From a virus (Duplodnaviria; Caudoviricetes), in the IMG/VR virus record IMGVR_UViG_3300007770_000001: a stretch of DNA of 64,000 nt. The stretch is one strand, 5' to 3'. The stretch's first letter is position 1. Each line of letters opens with the position of its first letter. A program made the position numbers and the translations under genes. This document shows positions 3,001 to 54,304 of the stretch, piece after piece. A model generated the notes under the pieces. That model had not been told where the DNA came from and ran no database searches. It saw only the letters and a list, made by a program, of their open reading frames with translations.

Positions 3001-5248
3001 CACAGGTCCAGTCTTCTACGGGGTGAATCACCTCTTCGGAGACTCCCAGACGAGCTCGGATGATGTGTTCCGCGTCCTCGGAGGCCAGGACTCCAACTCC
3101 GCAGTGGAGTCCCTCTTCTTCCAGACGGGAACCACCTCGGGGCGTGTGTATGGCGAGTACTTCGCCATGGGAGGCTCAGCCGCCGGCTACCAGGCTCGGA
3201 TCTACGAGGACGTGAATGTCCACTCCTCGGATGTCCCCAGGGGTCTGAAGGGCATCCAGCTGCCCCCGTTCCTGGGCATCGCTCGGATCTATGGAGTCTA
3301 TGACCTTCGGGAGTTCTCGGGACAGGGAGCCTGGGATGCCGATCGCGTGACCCTGAACACTTCGGGAGGGCGGCCTGCCAACCTTCTCCGTGACGACCAG
3401 GACAAGCAGACCCTGTTCATCGTCCCTGGCGGGGGCTCCGATGTCACTGGGGACGAGGACGACCACACCTACGTGATCCCCAACACCCTCATCGACGTCC
3501 GGCGCTCTGGACAGTATGTGGCGGGGGAGACCTTCGATGACCTCGAGTTCGTAGTTGAGTGTGTTGTCTTCGGGTTCGCTCGGGGCTTCATCACCAAGAA
3601 CAACTATGTCTTGGCCCGTCGGAATCTTCCCACGGGAGTGGATCCCATCGCAACCTCTTCTGCTGTTGCGGGGCAGGTTTCCTGTATTCTCCCTTTGCCC
3701 CTGCCCTACAATGAGCAGGCATACATCGCCTATGATCGCACGGTCTACCAGGGCGACCCCTACATGACTCGGGATGGGGCGACCAAGACAACTTCCGACT
3801 ACGAGAACCGCTACGGGATGATCCCTTCCTCCAGCTCCGCAGAGCTCGGGACAGCCATCCAGCAGTTCGATAGCTCCAACGACTACGCCCAGGTCCCTGA
3901 GACTCTGAACGCCCGTGGGTTCGAAGTCCTGGCCTCCGCCGACTTCTACACGACTCTCGGGACGGGCAAGGTCGGGGGTCGGATCTACTCGGGAACGTTC
4001 TTGGATATCGGTGTCGTGTCCTCATCAACACGAATCGCGGCGAGCGCCAGCGACCCCTTGTGGCAGCCCCAGGCCCGAGCCCTCACCGAAGGCCAGGCTC
4101 TGAGCGCCGCCCGGGCAGTCCTGGAGATCGAGGTTCTCACGGATAGCGCAGCTTCCGTAGGCGAGGCGATCGTCTTGGAGAGAGGAACCAAGACGAACAC
4201 TCTGGTATCGAATACGGCCTTCTCAGGAGCCACCCCGGAACTGGTCGCCCAGTCCCTCGTTGGGGCCATCAACTCCTCGGACTTCGCTGCAAGTACTGCC
4301 CAGGTCCGCGCGTACTGGAACGGTGGTCGGGTCTGCTCTCTGGTGTCGATGATCCCAGGAGCCGAAGGGAACGAGACCCACGTGAGAATGGTCCCCGCTT
4401 CCACACGGGCCGTTACAGGGTTCCGAATCCATGCCCGGGGCTCCTTGTCCCAGCAGGCTCTCTCTACGATCACCGGGTCGAACCTCATCGGAGGAGTGGA
4501 TTCTCCGATGAATGGTCGGGATGGTTCTCTGGCGACGACTCCAGTCCGGATGGCTGGCCTCATCGAGCGCCTCCCCTTGGGGATTCTCCTGCAGGACTCG
4601 GACTTCGTCGGTGAGGATCCTCTCCAGAACGGATCGAGTTCCCTTTGGGTCAATCTGAGTGGAGGGGCGGTCTCGGCAACCTCCCTGACTCCTCTCTCTG
4701 GAGACTCCGAGTACGGGCGTGTCGAGGGTTCGGGGCAGATCGCCATGGCAGACGGCGCCATCCTCGAGTACACGGCATGGACCCTTGCCCAGCCTACGGG
4801 AACCAAGAGCTTCCGCCTGTTCCGCGGAGGGGGCTCGGCTTGGGTCATCGACCCAAGCCCCGTGGGAGGCCCTGCAGACTGGTCTGCGGGAGGCTTCGAC
4901 GAGGGCTCTCAGCCCGTGCTGAAGGGCGCGCTCTTGGCTGGCCGGGCCTACTTGGTCCGGAACTTCCCCGAGACGGCCTACACGGGCTCAGACACTCGCT
5001 CGCACGGCTCCGAAATCCAGATGGTCATCTGCACCAACGGGATCTTGGGTCTCGGCCCTCTCTGCAACAAGGGCTATGACCTCAAGGGTCAGATCTCTCC
5101 CACCGGCTACGGAGAGGGCTTGGCTGCCGCTGATCGGTATCTCCTCGAAGGCCGGCCCATGTCCCGAGGACCTCGCGTGAGTGCCTCGACGACAGGAGAG
5201 TTGGCTCCCTTCCCGGGGATGGACGCGGCTGCTGATGATGGCTGCTGA
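2..5248 (+). CDS. Very large virion structural protein (tail/baseplate-associated), 5' end outside the window
   Basis: Frame is open from base 2 through the 1725 aa ORF. It is Gly/Ser/Thr/Asp-rich and beta-rich, with an AxxLxxAIN-type segment (PELVAQSLVGAINSS) also seen in the 33.7 kb structural ORF. No enzyme motif. Confidence 0.6.
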   Translation: MDSEFNLAAQAAWEREANAVRAQMPSGFLLDPFQSDADYVTDENWSNWLQLGRPAAGDQTPVLWANVNGWLIPVAGSNATDLSNRINLWNPPTTDARTDFIFLEVWLSLVAPNPSTVNKPSASTIYKYGNTEFGGTNIADDLMDPNIGIETSERVQIQYRLRVVGQGAGLGSSVDLTTYPDGLGDPNVLAQGNATAPQAGLSYVNMGETLGDPGLWRAGDGDSTNALATVDGYSYAIPVCGIFRRNTSSFVARTTSGNANQNGALDRNPSSTTPTTPVEATRTFTEVTLTSAIDETATGAVQVDGLASSGLDNSDIDWDSTFLVIDGEIIYIESVSTATTPGTITIRATEGRGRNGTQAAPHDAGVSVQFYNFRPDGKFSDQILPDDILDLRRGVQAGDWDYKALLAHNLGKLFENTLKSAFKQAGPSDTQGPVVFEVDTLHANSATSTPNQTEALDGPDGIREVFSDASVLQSNVSIILNPEIGSGGSAVVISDFTSDATSWGPAAEFVPDGFQPDGGGWDNQTIIHLYIGGATGSGGARATVRGSENKIVRFISPREHWLTRDEIETDAGIGVSGNQYPFLFRLLEEGWGDPAGADEPAVQHPGPMFPLPEYNFERPFIVLGGSVNSLLASSTAEAVATGSSPAGFSLVRFSGLDFDTPGDWFPTGDVSSLSPEGVTNTLLHGQRNLFDMVTNGGRDRSGASSELYLVLEGDLTTPANNGVWRVIGAGTAGYTTVDGATAEDLVVERVGVGANVLVAGTSLTASVRSQYTHTEDGTVAGESAAVVVLTDLGGAVGGLTYPWDSLTSLPSVSQAVLDTTIQYNPSRGGTARVANKVRRVAMVGVDSAELVREAPTGIDTSFDSQAGIPEGEIYFPFSHVQTWNRLPSLGLSAPRAPAYGNSSYFGEYRREAEAFVDAGSKTLVLRPFQRTDLTLVRYRATAGATDRFFPDTYTAGASAGTSVDGGQLFPSDADYAYAFPHEWMPRLGRQDIPFHQTTGTTGPVFYGVNHLFGDSQTSSDDVFRVLGGQDSNSAVESLFFQTGTTSGRVYGEYFAMGGSAAGYQARIYEDVNVHSSDVPRGLKGIQLPPFLGIARIYGVYDLREFSGQGAWDADRVTLNTSGGRPANLLRDDQDKQTLFIVPGGGSDVTGDEDDHTYVIPNTLIDVRRSGQYVAGETFDDLEFVVECVVFGFARGFITKNNYVLARRNLPTGVDPIATSSAVAGQVSCILPLPLPYNEQAYIAYDRTVYQGDPYMTRDGATKTTSDYENRYGMIPSSSSAELGTAIQQFDSSNDYAQVPETLNARGFEVLASADFYTTLGTGKVGGRIYSGTFLDIGVVSSSTRIAASASDPLWQPQARALTEGQALSAARAVLEIEVLTDSAASVGEAIVLERGTKTNTLVSNTAFSGATPELVAQSLVGAINSSDFAASTAQVRAYWNGGRVCSLVSMIPGAEGNETHVRMVPASTRAVTGFRIHARGSLSQQALSTITGSNLIGGVDSPMNGRDGSLATTPVRMAGLIERLPLGILLQDSDFVGEDPLQNGSSSLWVNLSGGAVSATSLTPLSGDSEYGRVEGSGQIAMADGAILEYTAWTLAQPTGTKSFRLFRGGGSAWVIDPSPVGGPADWSAGGFDEGSQPVLKGALLAGRAYLVRNFPETAYTGSDTRSHGSEIQMVICTNGILGLGPLCNKGYDLKGQISPTGYGEGLAAADRYLLEGRPMSRGPRVSASTTGELAPFPGMDAAADDGC

Positions 5249-5291: not shown

Positions 5292-5732
5292 TTGAATCCC
5301 AATCCGATCCCTGTGGCCTCTGTCCAGAACACGCGTTTGGGAGAGCTCTCGGCGGCCCTTCGGTCGGGAGAGTTCACGCAGACTTCTCAGGCCCTGAAGA
5401 GGAAGCTTCTGGACGGAACCTACGCTCACTGTGTCCTCGGCGTCGCCTGCGAGATCGCAGATATCGAGACCCTCTCCTGGGAAGATGGAGAGGGGGATAC
5501 ACTCAACCTTCGGGAGAAGGGCGGGGAGGCTCGGGTCTCTGTCCCTCCCCTGTCTGTTCAGGACCACTACGGGTTCACCCACGCCCAGGGGTTCCGGGTC
5601 ACTATCGACAGGTATCCTCAGCTGCTGAAGGTGGGCCGAGGACCTACCTTCCTTCTGGCGACCCTGAACGACTACGGAGTCCCATTCGAGGTCCTGGCAG
5701 ACCTCATTGATGACTTCCGGGAGAGGAGCTGA
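5292..5732 (+). CDS. Hypothetical phage protein (ALRSGE-x-Q...C-x-LGV-x-C type)
   Basis: 146 aa ORF with TTG start; stop overlaps the next ATG. Confidence 0.6.
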   Translation: MNPNPIPVASVQNTRLGELSAALRSGEFTQTSQALKRKLLDGTYAHCVLGVACEIADIETLSWEDGEGDTLNLREKGGEARVSVPPLSVQDHYGFTHAQGFRVTIDRYPQLLKVGRGPTFLLATLNDYGVPFEVLADLIDDFRERS

Positions 5733-20444: not shown

Positions 20445-20906
20445 ATGCGATACGACCCCCGGAGCTTTTCCGACCGTTGCAGCTTGGCTCGTGAGCTGAT
20501 CACCAAGCTGGAAAGCTGTGGGTTCTCCCCGACGGAGATCCCCGGAACTCAGGAGAAGGTCTATCAGCGCCAGGTGCCCAACACCTCCCTGTGGATCACC
20601 GTCTACACGACGGTCGTGGTCGACTCCTTCGATCCCAACGGCGCGCTTTGCGTCCGGACATCTGGTTCCGACGCCATCCGCGTGGTTCTCCTTCACACCA
20701 AGAACCGTACTCGGGGTGTCGGGAAGGAGAGGCGGGTGAATCGGACGGGCACGATCCCGCGGATCACCCACCGGATGCACGAGAGGATGCGGGACGCCTA
20801 CCTGAAGGCTCTCGAGACCGAGCGTTGCTCCAGCTGCGGGAGCGCCCTCTTCCTCTCCAAGAAAAAGAACCAGGTCTGTGCGGACCTCTGCTGGAAGAAC
20901 CGATGA
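20445..20906 (+). CDS. Hypothetical protein with C-terminal CxxC...CxxxC
   Basis: 153 aa ORF behind a promoter and RBS. Confidence 0.7.
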   Translation: MRYDPRSFSDRCSLARELITKLESCGFSPTEIPGTQEKVYQRQVPNTSLWITVYTTVVVDSFDPNGALCVRTSGSDAIRVVLLHTKNRTRGVGKERRVNRTGTIPRITHRMHERMRDAYLKALETERCSSCGSALFLSKKKNQVCADLCWKNR

Positions 20907-21097
20907 GCAAGAGAAGCCTACAAATCCTGGTCCGCCGCACTCGGGGAGGGCACGCCATGAACCTGGTCCGAGAGCGGATCTCTGAGATGTCGGATGAGGA
21001 GGCTCGTCAGTGGCTCGTTCTCTTCCAAAACGTCCAAACCCAGGCGCAGCAGGAGGGCGAGTCGAACGTCCGTCGGAGGTATCCGTGGCATCGGTAG
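20903..21097 (+). CDS. Small hypothetical protein
   Basis: ATG overlapping the previous TGA; 64 aa. Confidence 0.5.
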   Translation: MSKRSLQILVRRTRGGHAMNLVRERISEMSDEEARQWLVLFQNVQTQAQQEGESNVRRRYPWHR

Positions 21098-21864
21098 ACG
21101 ACCTGATCATGAACTGGTCCAAGGGACCCAAGACCCCCACCACCAAGAAGGCTCCTCCTCCGGCAGAGCCGGCCAGGGACACCTCGGAGCTCGCGGCAGC
21201 CCAGGCGCTTCGCAAGGCCCTCCTGGAGCTGGAGTCCGCAGGCAAGGAGTATCCCAAGCAGACTCACTGGATCCCCCTGGTCCGCAAGGCCCTGGGACGG
21301 AGCCGTCTGCGCCGGAGCCTGTTCGACAAGGTCGTGGCTGCGGGAATCCAGGCCAAGCTGTTCAAGAAGGATGGCGAGTACCTGTTCATCCCCCCAGAGA
21401 CCAAGGAACCGGCCAAGAAGCCTCCCTCCAAGAGGACGGAATCCCCTGGGATCCGGATTCCGGAAAAACCCAAGGCTCCCTCTCCCCACCGGATCATGGA
21501 CTGCGGGCACCCCAACTTCCAGAGAGTCCCCAAGGAGGGAACCGAGGACGAGGAGTATCTCTGCAACCAGGTACGTCCTCGGAACGTTCGCCGGTTCAAC
21601 GGCCCGGAGGACTGCTATATGTGCTCCGCAGGGCTCCCTGGGAAGCCCCAATACCAGAAGGGGGAGTACCGTAGCCCCGTTCCTCTGGGGAACCGTAGGA
21701 CGGCCTCCAAGGACTCCCATACAGGCTTTCCTGGCCTGTGTGCAGACCCTGAGACCGGCTTCTACATCGGGGGGGTTGGGAACAACTGCAGACTCTACCA
21801 TGACGGACCGGAACGCTGTGTAGCGCACGCTCCTCGGGAAACCAAGACCGGTAAGGACACGTAG
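21085..21864 (+). CDS. Hypothetical protein with Cys-rich C-terminus
   Basis: GTG 21085 with GGAGG upstream, inside ORF 21010..21864. Confidence 0.6.
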   Translation: MASVDDLIMNWSKGPKTPTTKKAPPPAEPARDTSELAAAQALRKALLELESAGKEYPKQTHWIPLVRKALGRSRLRRSLFDKVVAAGIQAKLFKKDGEYLFIPPETKEPAKKPPSKRTESPGIRIPEKPKAPSPHRIMDCGHPNFQRVPKEGTEDEEYLCNQVRPRNVRRFNGPEDCYMCSAGLPGKPQYQKGEYRSPVPLGNRRTASKDSHTGFPGLCADPETGFYIGGVGNNCRLYHDGPERCVAHAPRETKTGKDT

Positions 21865-21865
21865 G

Positions 21866-22012
21866 ATGAAACCGCAACTCGTGCAGCGCCAAGTCGTATC
21901 CACCGGAGGTCTGCAGAAGGCCCGGTTTGGGATCTCCGACCGCACCAAGGCCCGTGTCTTCCGGATTCTGCGGAGTGCTCTACACAGGGTGTCTGTCCTG
22001 GAAGGAAGCTAA
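21866..22012 (+). pseudogene. Orphaned original 5' end of rIIA
   Basis: MKPQLVQRQVVSTGGLQKARFGISDRTKARVFRILRSALH aligns without gaps to rIIA residues 1-40 (19/40 identical by eye), then runs into the endonuclease gene. Confidence 0.85.
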
Positions 22013-23068
22013 TCTTTCGGGGTCGAATGGCTTTTCGACCAAAGGCCAGTCTTCTTTTTGGAATATCCTCAGATCCACTTTATGCTCACCCAGTACCTTG
22101 TGCATTTTGGCTTTGGCTTCTTCTGGGAAATATCCCTTGACCTCTATGTAGATACCAAATGTTGGAATATAGAAGTCAGGCGTGTATCTCCGGTGTCCTG
22201 CGTAGCAGAGACTATGTCGTTCCCATAAGACTCCGCAACGGTGAAGCCATTCAGCGACCCGTTTCTCCCAAGTCCCTTGGACAAGGGATATGGTGTCCCC
22301 GTTCTGGACCTCATACCAAATACACCGGTTCTTGTAGTTGTTTCCCACCATGCGTTTGGAGTGGAACTCCCGGATGGGGGTGCTCCTCGGTGAGGCATAG
22401 AATTCTCTCAAAGATGCTATACGTTTTCTCTCAGAGATGGCTCGCTTTTCTGAGAATGCGGGCCCCATGCGCTTGGCGTTCCAGTCCTGGAGGTTAGCCC
22501 GGGCGGTCGTCCGAGCTGTTTCTGAACGAGCACTCTGCCAAAATTCTAAGGTCCCCTTGAGGAGTCGGTTCCTGACCTGCTCTTTTTGCTCGGGAGAATA
22601 CCGTTCCCACTGTCTCCTGGCTTGCTCCCGGAGACGTACTCTCTCCCGTTCCCGTTCTTCTGGCGTCATGGCTGCACGCCGGGCTTTCTTCCCTTCCCGT
22701 AGGGGTCTCATGTACTCTTCGATTTCTTGGGGAGATCTCTGATCCCAGCGTTCTTGATTCCCTCGAAGAAGCTGTTGGAGGACCCGTTCTTGATCTTCCC
22801 CGCCACAGGCCCATTGGTGCTTCGCTGAGCAACTACTCGAACAGTATTTGGAGTTGGTTGTATCCTTCCCACATCTGAAGCAAGCCTTCAAACGCTTTAT
22901 TCTACCGTGGTTCCTCTGGCACTCCTGGGAGCAAAAGGCGATCCGGTTCGCATGCTGGGTGCCGCACTCAAGGCAATCCTTGACCTGTTCAGGGTGCCTG
23001 TCAATTTTCCGGCACTTCCCAGAGCAATAAAGAACTCCTGCTCTTGAGGTGGCTCCCCCGCAAACCAC
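21980..23068 (-). CDS. PD-(D/E)XK homing-type endonuclease with repeated CxxC...CSxxC zinc fingers
   Basis: C-terminal WE...YTPDFYIP...YIEVKG nuclease motif. The frame stays open upstream to 23185 and includes a further zinc finger. Confidence 0.85.
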   Translation of the reverse strand: MVCGGATSRAGVLYCSGKCRKIDRHPEQVKDCLECGTQHANRIAFCSQECQRNHGRIKRLKACFRCGKDTTNSKYCSSSCSAKHQWACGGEDQERVLQQLLRGNQERWDQRSPQEIEEYMRPLREGKKARRAAMTPEERERERVRLREQARRQWERYSPEQKEQVRNRLLKGTLEFWQSARSETARTTARANLQDWNAKRMGPAFSEKRAISERKRIASLREFYASPRSTPIREFHSKRMVGNNYKNRCIWYEVQNGDTISLVQGTWEKRVAEWLHRCGVLWERHSLCYAGHRRYTPDFYIPTFGIYIEVKGYFPEEAKAKMHKVLGEHKVDLRIFQKEDWPLVEKPFDPERLASFQDRHPV

Positions 23069-23336
23069 GCAAAAGGATCTCCGAGGGGGTTTCCTGGCAG
23101 GGTCTTTTTGGAGGCATTTTCGGGAACAGTAAGGGGTCCCTCTTCCGCGGCTGTGGGGTTTTGAGCAGATGATACAAGTTTTACTTCAAAACCGTAAATA
23201 AGGTTGAGGACTGCCTATGCGAACTCACAGGACCCAAAGAAAAATAGTCCGAAAAGGCGGGCTTCAGACAGCAGGGTTTGGGATCCGTTCCCAAGGAACC
23301 GCGAAAATCTTCCGTATCCTCAGGGATTTCCTATAC
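21980..23336 (-). mobile_element. Intron-less homing endonuclease cassette inserted antisense into the rIIA 5' end, with a replacement N-terminus (boundaries approximate)
   Basis: Endonuclease ORF flanked by two diverged copies of the rIIA N-terminus; visibly more AT-rich than the flanks. Confidence 0.75.
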
Positions 23337-25553
23337 GGAGACAAGATACTCGCAGTATTGCGAGAGATCGGAGGGAACGCATGGGACTCCCACCGAGCCG
23401 CTGGGAAGCCGGATCTCCCGATACGGGTGGTCCTCCCCACGAGCCTGGAGCCGTCACTGGTCATCCGGGACTGGGGTCCCGGGCTCCGTGCAGGAGATCC
23501 TGACGAACCAGAGGAAGTCCGTGACCTCCTCGGTCCCAGCGTGTTCGGGACCTTCATCTGGTACGGGGACACCACCAAGGACGAGACCGACGAAGAGGTA
23601 GGCTCCTTCGGCATCGGCGCCAAGTCCCCGTTCGCATACAACGACAGCTTCTCTGTGGCCAGCTGGCATGGTGGTCTCCGTTGCGTCTACAGCGCAATGT
23701 TGGACGAGTCGGACGAGGGAGAGATGACTCTCTTCCACATGGCGGCTCTCGGAGAGCACATCGAGAGCTTCCTTGAGAGCAAGGAGATCCCGGTCTTCTT
23801 GCCTGCCAATGAGTGGGTGGGCCTCTCTACAGTCCCCGACCTGGAAGGACTCAAGGACGAGTTCATCGAGTGGCTTCGCGCCAAGGGGCTGGTATCTGAT
23901 TTTGAGACGGGGCTCGAGGTCAAGGTCCCGGTGGTACCCTCGGATTCCATCAAGTTCCACAACACAGCACGGGACCTCTTCCGCTACTTCGAGCCCCAGC
24001 CCGACATCAACGTCAAGCTCAAGCCCGCCGTCTACGCCTTTGAGAACGAAAACGGCGGGTTTGTTCGGGAGTCCCCTGATTGGACCTTGGTCATGGGCTG
24101 CATCCCGTACCGTGTCCGAGAGTCACGCATCCTCCCTTTCATCGGAGATGAGTACAAGTCCGCTTTCCGCACCCGTGGGGGGATTCTCCGCTGCGACATC
24201 GGAGAGGTATCGGTCACCGCCAGTCGCGAGGATCTCGAGTACACGGAACGCACCGTCGAGGCTGTTGTTCGCAGGTTCACCCTCCTGTGCCAGGCGGCCA
24301 TGCGTGACCTTGTCAGCAAGGTCACCAAGAGCTCCACGACTGATTGGGAGAAGCGGATCAGCGTCTTGGCTCTCCCGAAGGGTCTCCCTCTCCCTCCGGA
24401 GTTGGCGTCCCTCAATGAGGACAGGATCAAGATCTTCCGGAATAGGAAATCCTACGGCACCGCCCTTCCTGTCTTCCCGGCCCTGTACAACTTGCGCCGG
24501 CCTGTTCGGACCTACGGGAAATGGTCTCACCTGGATGATGCATTCTCCCTCCCCGTCAGCTCGAATACCCGTATCCTGATCAAGGACACCCACCACACTT
24601 GGCGTGGGTACGCTGCATCCACGTACGACCGGATCGTAATGCCAAAGCGGAGGGCTGACGTGGACGCAGCCGAGGCGCACATCAGGGATCTTCTCGAAAA
24701 GAAGGGGATGTCCGGAGTCCCAATCCTCAGGATGAGCTCCCTCGAGTTTACTCCTCCGGACCCGGCCAAGAAGGCGGCCATCGATACCCAGGCCCAGCAC
24801 AAGGCCAAGGTCCTCTCCTTGAAGGAGGACTTCGAGGATAGCAGGCCCCGCCAGAGGTCCTCCTACTGGGATGCGGCTGAGGTCGTCCTCTCTGCTGACG
24901 ATGTGTACGTGTTGACCCACCGGTTCCGTGCGGTGTCCCCAGGGCCTGTCGCCGACCCGGACACTCCGGAGAGCCTTCGGAACGGCTTCTTCGTCGAGAT
25001 CGAAGCGTTGCGGAGTCTGTTCCGGAACCTCAAGGTTCCGTTCCCCAAGATCTACGGGATCAAGAACCCCAAGGCCGATCGCTCGAAGATCCCTGCGAAG
25101 CCCTACGCAGAGTGGAAGATCGAGGCCCTCCTTCACCTGTTCAGGACCCATCCGGAACTGAAGGATTTCATCAAGTGGGCTCGCTTCAGTTCTGTCTCCA
25201 CGTACTCCTACTGCTCCTCGTATTCGGATCGAGAGATGTTGGGCCCCACCCACAGGTTCCTCGTCGAACAACTGGGGCCGGACCACGAGATCACCAAGTT
25301 CGCCGAACACCTCTGGAAAGCTCAAGAGCACACGCTCCATACCGGATACGTGGGCTGGGCTCTCTCGCTTCTTGAGGCCGCAGGACACACCCCAGCGATG
25401 GATCCGGCCGCTCTCCGAGACGACATCATCAAACGGTATCCGTTGCTCGGCGGAAAGCGCGATAGGAACTACCTGGGCATGTTCCGTTCCCGTGGGGAAC
25501 GAGAGCATTGGGTCCAGTACGTCAAGCTCATGGATACGCAGAGGAAGTCATGA
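23217..25553 (+). CDS. rIIA: rIIA-like protein (HSP90/GHKL-type ATPase N-terminus)
   Basis: LRE-x-x-x-NAWDSH, IRD-x-G-x-G, TK...GSFGIGAKSPFAY; followed by rIIB. Confidence 0.85.
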   Translation: MRTHRTQRKIVRKGGLQTAGFGIRSQGTAKIFRILRDFLYGDKILAVLREIGGNAWDSHRAAGKPDLPIRVVLPTSLEPSLVIRDWGPGLRAGDPDEPEEVRDLLGPSVFGTFIWYGDTTKDETDEEVGSFGIGAKSPFAYNDSFSVASWHGGLRCVYSAMLDESDEGEMTLFHMAALGEHIESFLESKEIPVFLPANEWVGLSTVPDLEGLKDEFIEWLRAKGLVSDFETGLEVKVPVVPSDSIKFHNTARDLFRYFEPQPDINVKLKPAVYAFENENGGFVRESPDWTLVMGCIPYRVRESRILPFIGDEYKSAFRTRGGILRCDIGEVSVTASREDLEYTERTVEAVVRRFTLLCQAAMRDLVSKVTKSSTTDWEKRISVLALPKGLPLPPELASLNEDRIKIFRNRKSYGTALPVFPALYNLRRPVRTYGKWSHLDDAFSLPVSSNTRILIKDTHHTWRGYAASTYDRIVMPKRRADVDAAEAHIRDLLEKKGMSGVPILRMSSLEFTPPDPAKKAAIDTQAQHKAKVLSLKEDFEDSRPRQRSSYWDAAEVVLSADDVYVLTHRFRAVSPGPVADPDTPESLRNGFFVEIEALRSLFRNLKVPFPKIYGIKNPKADRSKIPAKPYAEWKIEALLHLFRTHPELKDFIKWARFSSVSTYSYCSSYSDREMLGPTHRFLVEQLGPDHEITKFAEHLWKAQEHTLHTGYVGWALSLLEAAGHTPAMDPAALRDDIIKRYPLLGGKRDRNYLGMFRSRGEREHWVQYVKLMDTQRKS

Positions 25554-26836
25554 CCACCGAAGTCGAGTTCGACTACAACATCAGCCGCGAGTCCGCCACC
25601 ATCGTCCTGAACGGGGATATCTACACCCTCAAGAAGGGGGATCCCAACTTCGAGGAGGCTCGGGACAAGGCCCAGGATGAGGACATCGAAGGGCTCTTGG
25701 TCCTGTTCTCCAAGGGCCACGCTATCGAGAAGTGGACCGGTGGTCTGTTCCGGTTCCACCAGGGCTACATGATGTACAACGGCCGTCGGTTCCCGCCGGA
25801 GATGAACAAGCGCATGGTGGCGATGGCCGAGGCTGGGGACGACCCCACTGCCATCATGAAGTTCTGGCAGCGTCTGTCCAAGAACCCCAGCTGGCGCGCT
25901 GTCAAGAGTCTCTGGGGGTTCCTGAAGTCCCGGGGCATCTGCATCGACCTGGAGGGCCACATCCTGGCGTACAAGGCCGTGAATCCCGACTACACCTCCG
26001 TCCACAAGGATGAGGACGGAAACCCGGTCGACAACTCCATCGGCGCCAAGCCCTACATGGACCGGAACCGGGTCTCCGACGAGTACAACAGCCCCTGCCA
26101 CACGGGATTCCACGTCGGCAACCACCAGTACGCCAGCAACTACGGACCCCACAACCGGCGCATCATCGTGTGTCGCGTGGACCCTGCCAACGTGGTTTGC
26201 ATCTGCAACACCGCTCAGAAGATGCGGATCAACACGTACGAGGTCATCGGCAACTATGGGGCCCTCCTCCCGGACACCGTCTACGACATCAGCAAGGACG
26301 GCCTGGTCCCTAACCCTGCCGGGGGAACTCCTGAGGTGGAGAGTGTCCTGGACGAGATGGGTCCGGGAGAAGAGGAGCCGACCACAGCCCCAGAGAAGGG
26401 AGCTTCGCCCTCGGCCGTTTCCTCGGCCGCCCACAGCTTCGCTGCTCTCCTGGGCAAGGAGAAGGGCACTGTGGCCACACCCCCGGAGCAACGGGTGTCC
26501 TGGGATCTCTCCCTGGTTCCCGACGAGGCTCTCGTCAACGAGAACATGGCGAACCTCCGCAAGTACGCCAGCAACTTCCTGAAGATCGTCGGGGCCAGCC
26601 GGCTCCGGAAGTTGGATCACGATGGGGAAGAGGGCCTGATCACTGTCCTGATCAGGGAGCGCCAGAGGCGGCGTCGGGAGGTTTTCCGAGGAAGGGGCCG
26701 CGACGTAACCTCCGGGCAAGGAGGCACCCATGTCCGAACCCCAACGTCAAGCGAGCTTGCCCATGTCCTGGGCGGAAGCTGTCGCGGACCCCGGCGCTCT
26801 CGACCTCTCTGGGTCCAACCAGTACGATCTCCATGA
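25550..26836 (+). CDS. rIIB: rIIB-like protein (3' end probably extended by a lost stop)
   Basis: AYKAV-x-x-DY, DNS-x-G...MDR-x-x-V, C-x-x-GFHVG, V-x-VDP-x-x-VV, YEV; ATG 25550 overlaps the rIIA TGA. Confidence 0.85.
   Translation: MTTEVEFDYNISRESATIVLNGDIYTLKKGDPNFEEARDKAQDEDIEGLLVLFSKGHAIEKWTGGLFRFHQGYMMYNGRRFPPEMNKRMVAMAEAGDDPTAIMKFWQRLSKNPSWRAVKSLWGFLKSRGICIDLEGHILAYKAVNPDYTSVHKDEDGNPVDNSIGAKPYMDRNRVSDEYNSPCHTGFHVGNHQYASNYGPHNRRIIVCRVDPANVVCICNTAQKMRINTYEVIGNYGALLPDTVYDISKDGLVPNPAGGTPEVESVLDEMGPGEEEPTTAPEKGASPSAVSSAAHSFAALLGKEKGTVATPPEQRVSWDLSLVPDEALVNENMANLRKYASNFLKIVGASRLRKLDHDGEEGLITVLIRERQRRRREVFRGRGRDVTSGQGGTHVRTPTSSELAHVLGGSCRGPRRSRPLWVQPVRSP
26678..26709 (+). promoter_or_regulatory. 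Phage promoter motif
   Basis: GAGGTTT-N17-GACGTAAC followed by AAGGAGG and ATG 26730. Confidence 0.75.
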
Positions 26837-50866: not shown

Positions 50867-51190
50867 ATGGCTGAAAGACTCACCCTCAAGACCTACTACG
50901 CCCTCGTCGACCGACTTGCAATCGAGGCAGAGGCACGGAAGGAGGCATGGCCTCGAGAACGCGGCTACAAGGGTGGCTTGGAGTTCTCCCACGAGGTCGT
51001 CCAGGAGGAGGAGTCTCCCCATACCCAGGACCCCATTCTTGGTCTGGTTCTCCTCTCGTTCGCCTCCCGACCCGGTATTGCTTGGGAGGACTGCCCGATG
51101 CACAATCCGACCCGGGACTTCGCTCGGAACACCAGAATCCTGGCTCGTGAGGCCCTCATCTGGGATGTGTATCAACGCATGACGATTTGA
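50867..51190 (+). CDS. Hypothetical protein
   Basis: 107 aa with AGGA RBS. Confidence 0.65.
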   Translation: MAERLTLKTYYALVDRLAIEAEARKEAWPRERGYKGGLEFSHEVVQEEESPHTQDPILGLVLLSFASRPGIAWEDCPMHNPTRDFARNTRILAREALIWDVYQRMTI

Positions 51191-51219
51191 GGTTTCCTCA
51201 CTCCTCCCAGCGACGTAAC
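51189..51219 (+). promoter_or_regulatory. Phage promoter motif (original ligase promoter)
   Basis: GAGGTTT-N16-GACGTAAC, then AAGGAG and ATG 51244. Confidence 0.8.
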
Positions 51220-51243
51220 GGTAGGGAAGGAAGGAGAAACCTC

Positions 51244-51339
51244 ATGGCCCAGATCGCCGACCAGATCGCCACTCGCCTCCTCGCGGCCTCCCGCGCCTAC
51301 TACGGTGGCCGCGAGCCCTGTGGGCTTTCAGGATTCTGA
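51244..51339 (+). pseudogene. Orphaned original 5' end of the DNA ligase
   Basis: MAQIADQIATRLLAASRAYYGG aligns without gaps to [22 protein letters not shown] (11/22 identical). Confidence 0.85.
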
Positions 51340-52272
51340 AGCGTTTTGCGCTTTCCTTCTTGCCCAACGTCTTTTTTGGGATTCGCTCATTTTCCTGCGG
51401 GTCTCGGCGGATGTTACTTTCCCCGTATGGGTTTTCCGGACAGCTTCAGAGACCTTATTCCTGAAGTCTGGATCTTCCCATTGAGATACCATCTTTGCTC
51501 TCGCCGCTTCTCTCCGGGTTCCGTCGTCCTGGGACCACGCTTCCAGAGAGCGTTGTCGAACCCTTTCACGAATCGTATTGCCACCTTTCTCCCACCGTTC
51601 CCGTTGGGCGGTTGACATCTTCTGCCGAGACTCCTCGGAGTGAGTCCGCCCTTCCCAGTATTTGTTGCCTTGGTGTGCCTCGCTGATCTTTCTACGGGTC
51701 TCGGCAGACACGGTTTTCCCTCGGTGGGCTGCTCCAATCTTCTTTTTGGTTTCCGCTGTGTGCTTTTTACCTGTGGCTGCATCTGTTATCCTTCGGAGGG
51801 CGTCTGGGCTATGCACATGACCCCTCATCCGTTCTCTAATCTGCTCCACATGAGATTCTGACAGCTTCCTGCCCGACATCGCTCTGCTAATCTTGGCTCG
51901 GGTCTCCGGAGTGTGGGGAATCCCTATTCGGATTCGGCCCTTGGGGCATATATTGTATCCGGTGGTATGGGGTCTGAGGCGGTCTAACCATTTCTGTTCC
52001 GACTGCTCTACTCCTTCCGGAGAAACCTTTTCGAGGACACTCACTGAGAATGTCTCCTCCCCGTATTTTTCCCAGGCTCGTTGGAGCTTTTGGGAGTGAT
52101 GGGACCCTCTCCTGAGACTCCGGAAATGTCCCATTAGACGAGTCCTGATATTGACAGATCCTCCGACATACACTTTTCCGTTCAGGGTGTTGCTGATCTG
52201 GTAGACTCCCGAGCATTTCCGAGGGTCTCCCCCTACATCCCGTATCGCAGCTTCAATTGTGGGCACGTCCAT
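51328..52272 (-). CDS. GIY-YIG homing endonuclease with NUMOD3-type repeats
   Basis: GVYQI-x-N-x-x-NGKVYVGGS...R-x-x-x-H...F-x-x-x-VLE...EQ...YN; repeated H-T/S-x-ET-R/K-x-KIS-x-A motifs. Confidence 0.93.
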   Translation of the reverse strand: MDVPTIEAAIRDVGGDPRKCSGVYQISNTLNGKVYVGGSVNIRTRLMGHFRSLRRGSHHSQKLQRAWEKYGEETFSVSVLEKVSPEGVEQSEQKWLDRLRPHTTGYNICPKGRIRIGIPHTPETRAKISRAMSGRKLSESHVEQIRERMRGHVHSPDALRRITDAATGKKHTAETKKKIGAAHRGKTVSAETRRKISEAHQGNKYWEGRTHSEESRQKMSTAQRERWEKGGNTIRERVRQRSLEAWSQDDGTRREAARAKMVSQWEDPDFRNKVSEAVRKTHTGKVTSAETRRKMSESQKRRWARRKAQNASES

Positions 52273-52308
52273 ATGATGCCTCTTGAGATAGGCTGTCTAT
52301 TATTGTAG

Positions 52309-53455
<1,147 letters not shown>

Positions 53456-53457
<2 letters not shown>

Positions 53458-53485: not shown

Positions 53486-53509
53486 AGTCTTGAGGAAGGA
53501 GTGACCAAC

Positions 53510-54304
53510 ATGTTCCAGGTGCCCACCAACTGCCCCTCCTGTGGTTTCGAGCTCGAGATGGACGGAGGATACCTGAAGTGCTGCGGGCCCACGTGCCCGG
53601 CGCAGGTAGTCGGTTCCCTCAACCGGTGGGTGGGGAAGCTCCGCATCCTCAACATCGGGAACGCTCTGATCCAGGCCCTGGTCGATGCCGGGCGTGTGTC
53701 GGATATCTCTGGCCTGTACAGGCTGGAAGAGTCCTGGCTGCGCGAGTTCGAGATCGATGGCCGCAAGGTGGGCGGAAACGCCCGGCGCGTGGTGGCCTCC
53801 CTGAACGCAGCGCGGGATATCCCCGTCGACATGTTCGTGGGGAGCCTCGGGATTCCTCTCTGCGGCCGCAAGATGGTCAGCATCCTGGTCGACGCCGGCT
53901 ACGACGACCTCAGCAAGCTCGCCAAGGTCACGACTGCTCAGATGGAAGCGGTCCCCGGGTTCGGCGCCGAGCGCGCTCGTAGCTTCCGTGCCGGCTTCGA
54001 TGCATGCCGCTCTCTGATGCTCCAGATCATGGCCTCCGGAGTCGACGTGATCGCTCCGGTCCGCGCGGTGGCTACCGGAGATGCGATGGCCGGCCAGGCC
54101 GTGTGCTTCACGGGTGTCCGTGACAAGGAGGCTTCCGCGGCCATCGTGGATCAGGGCGGCAAGATCGCCAGCGGCGTGTCCAAGAACACCACCCTGTTGG
54201 TCGCGAAGAACCCCGCCTCCACCAGCGGCAAGGCCAAGAAGGCTCGCGCCCTGGGTATCGAGATCATCAGCCAGGCCGAGATGCGGTCCCGGCTCGGCCT
54301 CTGA
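53510..54304 (+). CDS. ligA: NAD-dependent DNA ligase, C-terminal part (Zn finger, HhH, BRCT)
   Basis: P-x-x-CPSCG...C-x-x-x-x-CPAQ, I-x-x-IG-x-x-x-x-x-x-LV, SLGIP-x-x-G, VPGFG, and BRCT VCFTG...GG-x-x-x-SGVSK-x-T-x-x-LV...K-x-x-KA-x-x-LGI-x-II. Confidence 0.93.
   Translation: MFQVPTNCPSCGFELEMDGGYLKCCGPTCPAQVVGSLNRWVGKLRILNIGNALIQALVDAGRVSDISGLYRLEESWLREFEIDGRKVGGNARRVVASLNAARDIPVDMFVGSLGIPLCGRKMVSILVDAGYDDLSKLAKVTTAQMEAVPGFGAERARSFRAGFDACRSLMLQIMASGVDVIAPVRAVATGDAMAGQAVCFTGVRDKEASAAIVDQGGKIASGVSKNTTLLVAKNPASTSGKAKKARALGIEIISQAEMRSRLGL

Follow-up and report, generated by a model that had tools for sequence, protein, structure and literature searches.

The 64,000-nucleotide stretch of DNA analysed here (the window; IMG/VR record IMGVR_UViG_3300007770_000001, Duplodnaviria; Caudoviricetes) carries at its rIIA gene what is probably a gene-end-replacement homing cassette. 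Approximately 1.35 kb of foreign DNA with a lower G+C content (GC) sits at about codon 39 of the resident rIIA and consists of an endonuclease gene antisense to rIIA, a 148-bp control region with a ribosome binding site (RBS) and a heterologous version of rIIA codons 1 to about 40-57. The complete rIIA downstream is, to judge from its sequence, a chimera made from the imported start, with a donor 5' end and a resident body. The displaced resident end survives as a stub of 38-40 codons across the endonuclease gene, directly after a conserved upstream gene (gene X). Because rIIA is supplied with an imported start, splicing is not needed, and because this is a spare 5' end, the gene remains in one piece. 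The endonuclease gene is intact, no splicing element was detected in the region, and the same design recurs at a ligase gene elsewhere in the window.

The stub is an open reading frame (ORF) of 48 codons on the plus strand (21866-22012; ATG at 21866, stop codon at 22010-22012). Gene X (21085..21864, plus strand, by gene call) ends with a TAG at 21862-21864, which places the orphan ATG one nucleotide after the upstream stop, as an original prediction made from the letters of the sequence had it. Aligned without gaps to the start of the 778-amino-acid (aa) rIIA, the stub shares 18/38, 19/40 and 20/45 identities, and its similarity to the working start is recovered both by pairwise BLASTP (E 2e-11) and by tblastn over the whole window (E 1e-5). 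An N-terminal rIIA hidden Markov model (HMM), which covers the first 62 columns in the alignment of 26 rIIA homologues and was run on six-frame translations of the window segment and of 82 related loci, matches the stub at an independent E-value of 5.6e-11 over model positions 1-44. Since this match does not depend on the working copy, the stub is by itself a genuine rIIA N-terminus and not a chance similarity. It keeps the family-invariant residues M1, G14, F21, L35 and R36, and Y40 is replaced by H at the junction. The prediction had matched the fragment to rIIA residues 1-40 without gaps. Identities, BLASTP and HMM bear out the match, but the rIIA homology stops at codon 38-40 and the remaining ORF, stub codons 39-48, is the antisense of the endonuclease 3' end. 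The orphaned resident 5' end proper (codons 1-38/40; 21866..21985) is thus delimited by the HMM, by composition and by identity to its clade.

The working rIIA (23217..25553, plus strand) matches phrog_612 from residue 1 (E 6.4e-81) and aligns over its full length to 26 homologues, the number that entered the end-to-end alignment from 127 found. Its start lies 1351 bp from that of the stub, and rIIB (25550-26836; phrog_609, 7e-52) follows directly. A GAGGA motif stands 6 nucleotides 5' of the new ATG, so that the working gene has, as had been proposed, its own new RBS together with a complete N-terminus. Between this start and that of the endonuclease gene lies a divergent intergenic region of 148 bp (23069..23216; GC 0.50). 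The one sigma-70-like site in it, a consensus match only, faces the endonuclease gene and is at the level of chance (1 found versus 0.7 expected). A terminator-like hairpin at 22028-22048 is no better than shuffled sequence (z -1.3).

Composition, distance and position agree in supporting the upstream stub as the resident 5' end, and the working 5' end, low in GC like the endonuclease and an outlier in sequence, as having come in with it. The flanks have 60-65% GC (0.60-0.65), whereas 21950-23350 forms a continuous tract of 45-57% GC that runs unbroken from the endonuclease 3' end to about codon 50 of rIIA. The endonuclease gene itself has a GC of 0.53 and a GC at third codon positions (GC3) of 0.575, compared with about 0.60 and about 0.74-0.82 for the phage genes. 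When the first 38 codons (114 nucleotides) are set against those of the 46 other genes in the window, the stub (GC 0.61, GC3 0.71) falls at the 48th percentile, while the working copy has a GC of 0.51, below all 46 other genes, and a GC3 of 0.53, at the 2nd percentile. The codon log-likelihood ratio per codon is +0.06 for the stub, on the host side, and -0.18 for the working copy, on the endonuclease side. Over the same 114 nucleotides, identity to three clade relatives is 56-57% for the stub but 44-49% for the working copy, whose identity to the stub is 51%; the three relatives share 59% with one another (80% for the second and third). Among full-length relatives the closest, P0002, scores higher with the stub (92) than with the working copy (52). 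The stub also occupies the expected position, one nucleotide after gene X, which is 36% identical (E 5e-39) to the ORF kept directly 5' of rIIA in the relative L004.

The identification of the orphan fragment as the original operon start is thus supported. The accompanying claim that the element supplies a "recoded" N-terminus fares less evenly: a foreign, low-GC 5' end (codons 1 to about 40-57; 23217..23387, plus strand) does replace the original one, but it is heterologous, with about 47-50% protein identity, and is not a synonymous rewrite. Composition, codon log-likelihood and nucleotide identity likewise separate the origin of codons 1 to about 50 from that of the rIIA body, making the full-length gene chimeric.

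At the left junction, the last rIIA codon of resident origin is codon 38-40 (21979-21985). The endonuclease closes with the residues F Q D R H P V, which line up with the C-terminus of its family and with that of T7 endonuclease I, and therefore the endonuclease 3' end up to the stop codon at 21980-21982 belongs to the inserted DNA. The change of stub Y40 to H follows from the same overlap, because the CTA CAC found there is the antisense of the endonuclease's terminal valine and stop codons. The working copy has CTA TAC at codons 39-40, and the resemblance of CTACAC to CTATAC suggests that the left side was joined by microhomology. On the right, the working rIIA, taken in 15-codon windows, has a GC3 of 0.40-0.67 over its first 50 codons or so and reaches host level after about codon 50-57, which puts the crossover from donor to resident sequence roughly within 23330-23390. 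The insertion point falls in the best-conserved N-terminal stretch of the protein, where L35, R36, Y40, A46, V47, R49, E50, N54 and D57 are invariant in the 26-homologue alignment. Homing endonucleases typically target such well-conserved sites.

The endonuclease gene (21980..23068, minus strand) is a separate ORF of 362 aa with a GTG start and is of the free-standing homing-endonuclease type. Its C-terminal part (residues ~246-362; 21983..22333, minus strand) is a PD-(D/E)XK nuclease domain resembling T7 endonuclease I. Pfam Phage_endo_I (PF05367) matches it at E 7.8e-5, with 22.8 bits against a curated cut-off of 29.1, and the PHROGs families annotated "endonuclease" and "Holliday junction resolvase" match at approximately 5e-11 (phrog_945, 5e-11). 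A profile of twelve homologues of the nuclease reaches T7 endonuclease I (PDB 1M0D) at E 1.5e-9 in an alignment that covers wE..., YTPDF and EVKG and continues to the C-terminal F.D[KR][YH]; residues E268, D298, E309 and K311 align with the active site. As the score falls below the Pfam cut-off while the family profile reaches 1M0D, the protein represents a related subfamily and not a threshold member of PF05367. These matches and the aligned catalytic residues agree with the predicted PD-(D/E)XK endonuclease on the opposite strand between the two rIIA starts. AlphaFold2 models residues 250-362 with a pLDDT (predicted local distance difference test) of 85-95 and predicts the N-terminal helices at moderate confidence. 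The top Foldseek rows for the whole 362-aa model are Bax1, I-Bth0305I and T7 endonuclease I, all PD-(D/E)XK proteins, at weak E-values (best 0.019). Two thirds of the model are of low confidence, which accounts for the weak values, and the fold assignment therefore rests on the sequence profile.

The N-terminal part of the endonuclease (about 225-240 residues; 22394..23068, minus strand) is presumably its DNA-recognition part, to judge from motifs read from the sequence: three zinc-finger-like CxxC...[FY]CSxxC...H repeats in residues ~1-88, followed in residues ~93-225 by a helical region in which [ST]PE[EQ] is repeated three times. Among 1.84 billion representative proteins none proved homologous over this part, and Pfam gave no match to it; 1,189 of those representatives share only the nuclease domain.

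Based on this arrangement, we infer how the cassette would spread. The endonuclease would cut cassette-free rIIA genes in or beside the most conserved N-terminal block, ILRD.LY..K.LAVLRE..NAWD, in the N-box region of the GHKL fold. In a co-infected cell the break would be repaired from the cassette-bearing genome, with homology supplied on the left by the stub and on the right by the rIIA body, and the whole unit would be copied in. Because the imported 5' end differs at the target, the new allele would be protected from further cutting. The founding transfer would have come from a more distant phage of lower GC, its left side probably joined by microhomology.

A cassette of the same design is present at the ligase gene (51187..52440). 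A stranded N-terminus of nicotinamide adenine dinucleotide (NAD)-dependent DNA ligase (ATG at 51244 to ~51309, plus strand), 12/23 identical to the working ligase start, is followed by an antisense GIY-YIG/NUMOD3 endonuclease gene (51328-52272, minus strand; Pfam 1.5e-8 and 2.1e-21), a spacer of 54 bp and, from 52327 on the plus strand, the ligase gene with a low-GC replacement N-terminus of about 38 codons. GC3 is 0.91 in the stub, 0.50-0.65 in the replacement start, 0.56 in the endonuclease and 0.85 in the ligase body. The two cassettes thus have in common a stub, an antisense endonuclease gene abutting the break, a short divergent spacer and a low-GC replacement start. That two unrelated nuclease families share this design argues for a mechanism and against an accident.

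The ligase itself appears as two consecutive ORFs, one with the adenylation and OB domains (52327-53457) and one that starts at the zinc-finger region (53501-54304). They lie 43 nucleotides apart with no endonuclease between them and could represent a split gene, a frameshift or a programmed event.

Approximately 110 rIIA loci were surveyed, made up of two overlapping collection scans (82 and 29 loci, with at least one contig common to both) and two retrieved contigs. The nearest rIIA proteins are 36-40% identical to that of the window. In the endonuclease-free syntenic relatives (three clade relatives) the conserved gene order is PolA, SprT-like gene, gene X, rIIA, rIIB, and the clade relatives have a single rIIA N-terminus in which a MKPQ or MKIQ start runs directly into LYK.K[VI]LAV. 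This is the fused arrangement that the original prediction expected of relatives without the endonuclease, and in none of the approximately 110 loci does an endonuclease-free rIIA keep both N-terminal copies. In HMM searches, neither a second rIIA N-terminus nor a nuclease of the same family turned up among the 82 further rIIA loci of the first survey or the 29 of the second. A single-protein rIIA scan returned no relatives in viral contigs and no close ones in metagenome contigs, and a word search with rIIA residues 1-57 found only the protein itself and no donor lineage. No joint skipping the insert was seen over 20500-25000 in the contigs of four public marine runs, each of which gave one identical contig; contigs drop rare variants, so this is uninformative on empty alleles.

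Several observations weigh against reading the locus as a homing cassette. All comparable copies, in two retrieved loci and in the contigs of the four runs, are identical and cassette-bearing, and neither a near-identical cassette-free allele nor a donor lineage was found among them; with the nearest relatives just 36-40% identical, presence or absence of the cassette is visible as a polymorphism only when distant relatives are compared. The collections searched, including 5.8 billion proteins, contain no further copy of the cassette or of its N-terminus, which leaves the cassette a putative mobile unit. The tests of composition rest on just 38-57 codons. Lastly, the working N-terminus scores highest against the stub (88), with 81 as the next best among 119 other rIIA proteins; this closeness fits a donor from the same broad clade but would also be compatible with a local origin.

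An explanation that we consider unlikely, though it survives better than the others, is that the locus is a one-off repair scar. An ordinary intergenic homing gene would have stood 5' of a donor rIIA, and a single illegitimate repair would have duplicated the 5' end, leaving a stub without a role and no self-sufficient unit. The lack of a second rIIA instance in the surveyed loci or in the 5.8 billion proteins speaks in its favour, as does the resemblance of the left junction to microhomology; moreover, most members of the nuclease family are intergenic, mainly beside transfer RNA (tRNA) genes, without adjoining fragments of protein-coding genes. However, the GIY-YIG endonuclease at the ligase gene repeats the whole design of stub, antisense endonuclease and low-GC start within the same window, and no donor with a plain intergenic endonuclease upstream of rIIA was found in the rIIA loci surveyed. 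Once formed, furthermore, the structure has perfect homology arms for precise homing into related phages that lack the cassette, so that "scar" and "unit" can be seen as stages of one process. A one-off illegitimate repair may account for the founding event of the rIIA cassette.

Far less probable is that the rIIA 5' end was duplicated in tandem within this lineage, that the two copies then diverged and that an endonuclease gene entered between them later. Such an origin would account for the scores of 88 and 81 given above. However, the copies are only 51% identical at the nucleotide level (34% at third positions), as distant as different phage lineages are, and a duplication would not yield a working copy with the low GC of the endonuclease, in a tract that is continuous from the endonuclease 3' end to about codon 50 of rIIA.

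That the element is an intron or is intein-like, removed at the RNA or protein level with the stub as the true rIIA N-terminus, is hardly credible: by coordinate arithmetic, excising 21986-23336 would join stub codon 40 in frame to body codon 41, but no Rfam family matches either strand of 21500-23700 at E up to 1, Pfam finds no Hint or intein domain in the endonuclease ORF, the nuclease gene is free-standing and antisense, the stub ORF has a stop codon and lies in a different genomic frame, and the downstream gene, with its own RBS and ATG, has the full family N-terminus from residue 1. The element is very probably intron-less, in agreement with the original prediction.

Inteins do occur in other rIIA genes. 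Two rIIA homologues from metagenomes, P0013 (1158 aa) and P0043 (1094 aa), contain an intein with Hint and LAGLIDADG domains, and that of P0013 interrupts the conserved ATP-binding motif GIG|SKS at about residue 120. Together with the cassette, these inteins indicate that rIIA is a repeated target of selfish elements, which have entered it by different solutions and at different conserved motifs.

The source of the window is an uncultured marine jumbo phage whose rIIA protein is found on 16 contigs, the longest of 338,860 bp. The same region is identical in the two loci retrieved and in the contigs of the four public marine or seawater runs, with differences of 2-3 bases over 12 kb. Locally, the gene order is family-A DNA polymerase, a small gene, the SprT-like gene, two small genes, gene X, the cassette, rIIA, rIIB and baseplate genes. 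In the relative L004 (462-1472), an antisense call of 238 aa 5' of rIIA was considered as an endonuclease and rejected, as it has neither a Pfam hit nor any similarity. The true gene at this place is the homologue of gene X on the plus strand (from 483). The frame of that homologue stays open beyond the rIIA start at 1246, which may be due to an overlap or to an assembly frameshift.

The family to which the nuclease domain belongs (VQGTWE...YTPDFY[LI]P...EVKG) has more than 500 matches in viral contigs. Its members are free-standing proteins of about 250 aa in phage contigs, with varied zinc-finger and NUMOD3-like N-termini, and several copies often occur in one locus. Of the 94 copies examined, 43 belong to phage tRNA arrays, where tRNA genes are no more than 1 kb away and several copies often share an array. 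Examples among loci L088-L166 are L092 (3881-4567) and L098 (1504-2187 and 3698-4354); a further one is L006 (5001-5789). The genes in tRNA arrays behave like the free-standing homing endonuclease gene segB of T4, whose nuclease fold is different. On this sequence evidence, the family appears to behave like mobile free-standing endonuclease genes. In one locus (L100, 4640-5750) a family member stands between two tRNA-Leu(taa) genes (4659-4740 and 5648-5729) that differ by a single T-loop base, and this pair may be a target duplication analogous to that at rIIA. When 83 loci of the family were searched for protein-level repeats across the endonuclease gene, the only similarities outside the window were those of tRNA genes in tRNA arrays. 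A limited literature search found no publication on T7-endonuclease-I-like free-standing endonucleases of tRNA arrays, and this large family supplies candidates for the homing endonucleases of such arrays.

If the rIIA locus is correctly read as a gene-end-replacement cassette, a selfish nuclease can invade a phage coding region without an intron, an intein or a split protein, by carrying a spare gene start. Such cassettes make host genes chimeric, so that phylogenies built on gene starts can mislead, and the short stub ORFs that they leave behind get annotated as hypothetical genes. The rIIA cassette also offers a concrete, testable pair of nuclease and target: a protein that joins a new zinc-finger-like, presumably DNA-binding part to a T7-endonuclease-I-like domain, and a site predicted to lie in the N-box region of rIIA. 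A broader proposition, on which we are evenly divided, is that phages carry a general third class of homing element. These would be gene-end-replacement cassettes with a resistant substitute start and with the stranded start as a homology arm, adopted independently by unrelated nuclease families (PD-(D/E)XK at rIIA, GIY-YIG at the ligase gene); the PD-(D/E)XK family would then be large, largely undescribed and located mostly in tRNA arrays.

Among known systems, the T4-type phages have free-standing nuclease genes, some of which also lie inside coding regions. SegF and SegG of T4 carry out "intronless homing", in which the flanks are co-converted by double-strand-break repair, and insertions of mobE, mobA and seg43 in T4-type phages split nrdA, gene 39/60 and gene 43, respectively, into two polypeptides that reassemble (review PMC2988022). 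These in-gene cases are split genes, whereas rIIA is kept whole, and the word stem "duplicat" is absent from that review. In phage "HEG-islands" (Barth, Dunham & Seed 2023, PMC10055350), some small genes beside homing endonuclease genes (HEGs) are fragments of neighbouring full-length, essential cargo genes and have been suggested to be recombination substrates; one HEG in such an island is of the PD-(D/E)XK type. The fragments there have nucleotide homology to their neighbours and are mentioned in passing; the section concerned describes no in-gene cassette with a heterologous start. A limited literature search for a published phage homing endonuclease with a duplicated or replaced gene start returned only this passing remark.

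The nuclease domain shares with T7 endonuclease I (1M0D, 2PFJ) the aligned catalytic core of E, PD and E.K, on to the C-terminal F..K[HY]. T7 endonuclease I, however, is a Holliday-junction resolvase of 149 aa without a sequence-specific module, in contrast to the additional N-terminal part of ~225-240 aa found here. The PD-(D/E)XK homing endonuclease I-Bth0305I (3R3P) is a structural neighbour of the endonuclease by Foldseek, at a weak E-value.

Gene-end replacement itself is known from fungi. Mobile endonuclease ORFs (mORFs) of fungal mitochondria, such as those at Allomyces atp6 and in Rhizophagus, enter a conserved gene and bring a foreign gene end, so that the old end becomes a pseudo-fragment. 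They encode LAGLIDADG or GIY-YIG nucleases and usually form an in-frame fusion with the host gene at its 3' end. The rIIA cassette, by contrast, replaces the 5' end and has its nuclease gene as an ORF of its own in antisense orientation.

The closest counterparts are the WHO elements at FBA1 of Torulaspora and Lachancea yeasts (Coughlan et al. 2020, PMC7282813; Osborne et al. 2026 preprint, doi 10.64898/2026.08.13.744650). They consist of an endonuclease gene and a resistant FBA1 3' end, which takes the place of the resident end whenever an element integrates, and they have been presented as a third category of homing element in addition to introns and inteins. Like the rIIA cassette, they combine an endonuclease gene with a divergent end of the host gene and leave the old end as a fragment across the endonuclease gene, with no splicing, and the fragment left behind has been proposed to act as a homology arm, as would the rIIA stub. 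They differ in that the replaced part is the 3' half of a nuclear gene in yeast, in their LAGLIDADG/intein-derived nucleases, in homing during meiosis and in building clusters. The rIIA cassette, known here from its sequence, is found in a phage as one cassette per locus, has an antisense PD-(D/E)XK nuclease gene and replaces a 5' end together with its translation signals. It would broaden the gene-end-replacement mode of homing, known from the WHO elements of yeasts and the mitochondria of fungi, to include phages and gene 5' ends.

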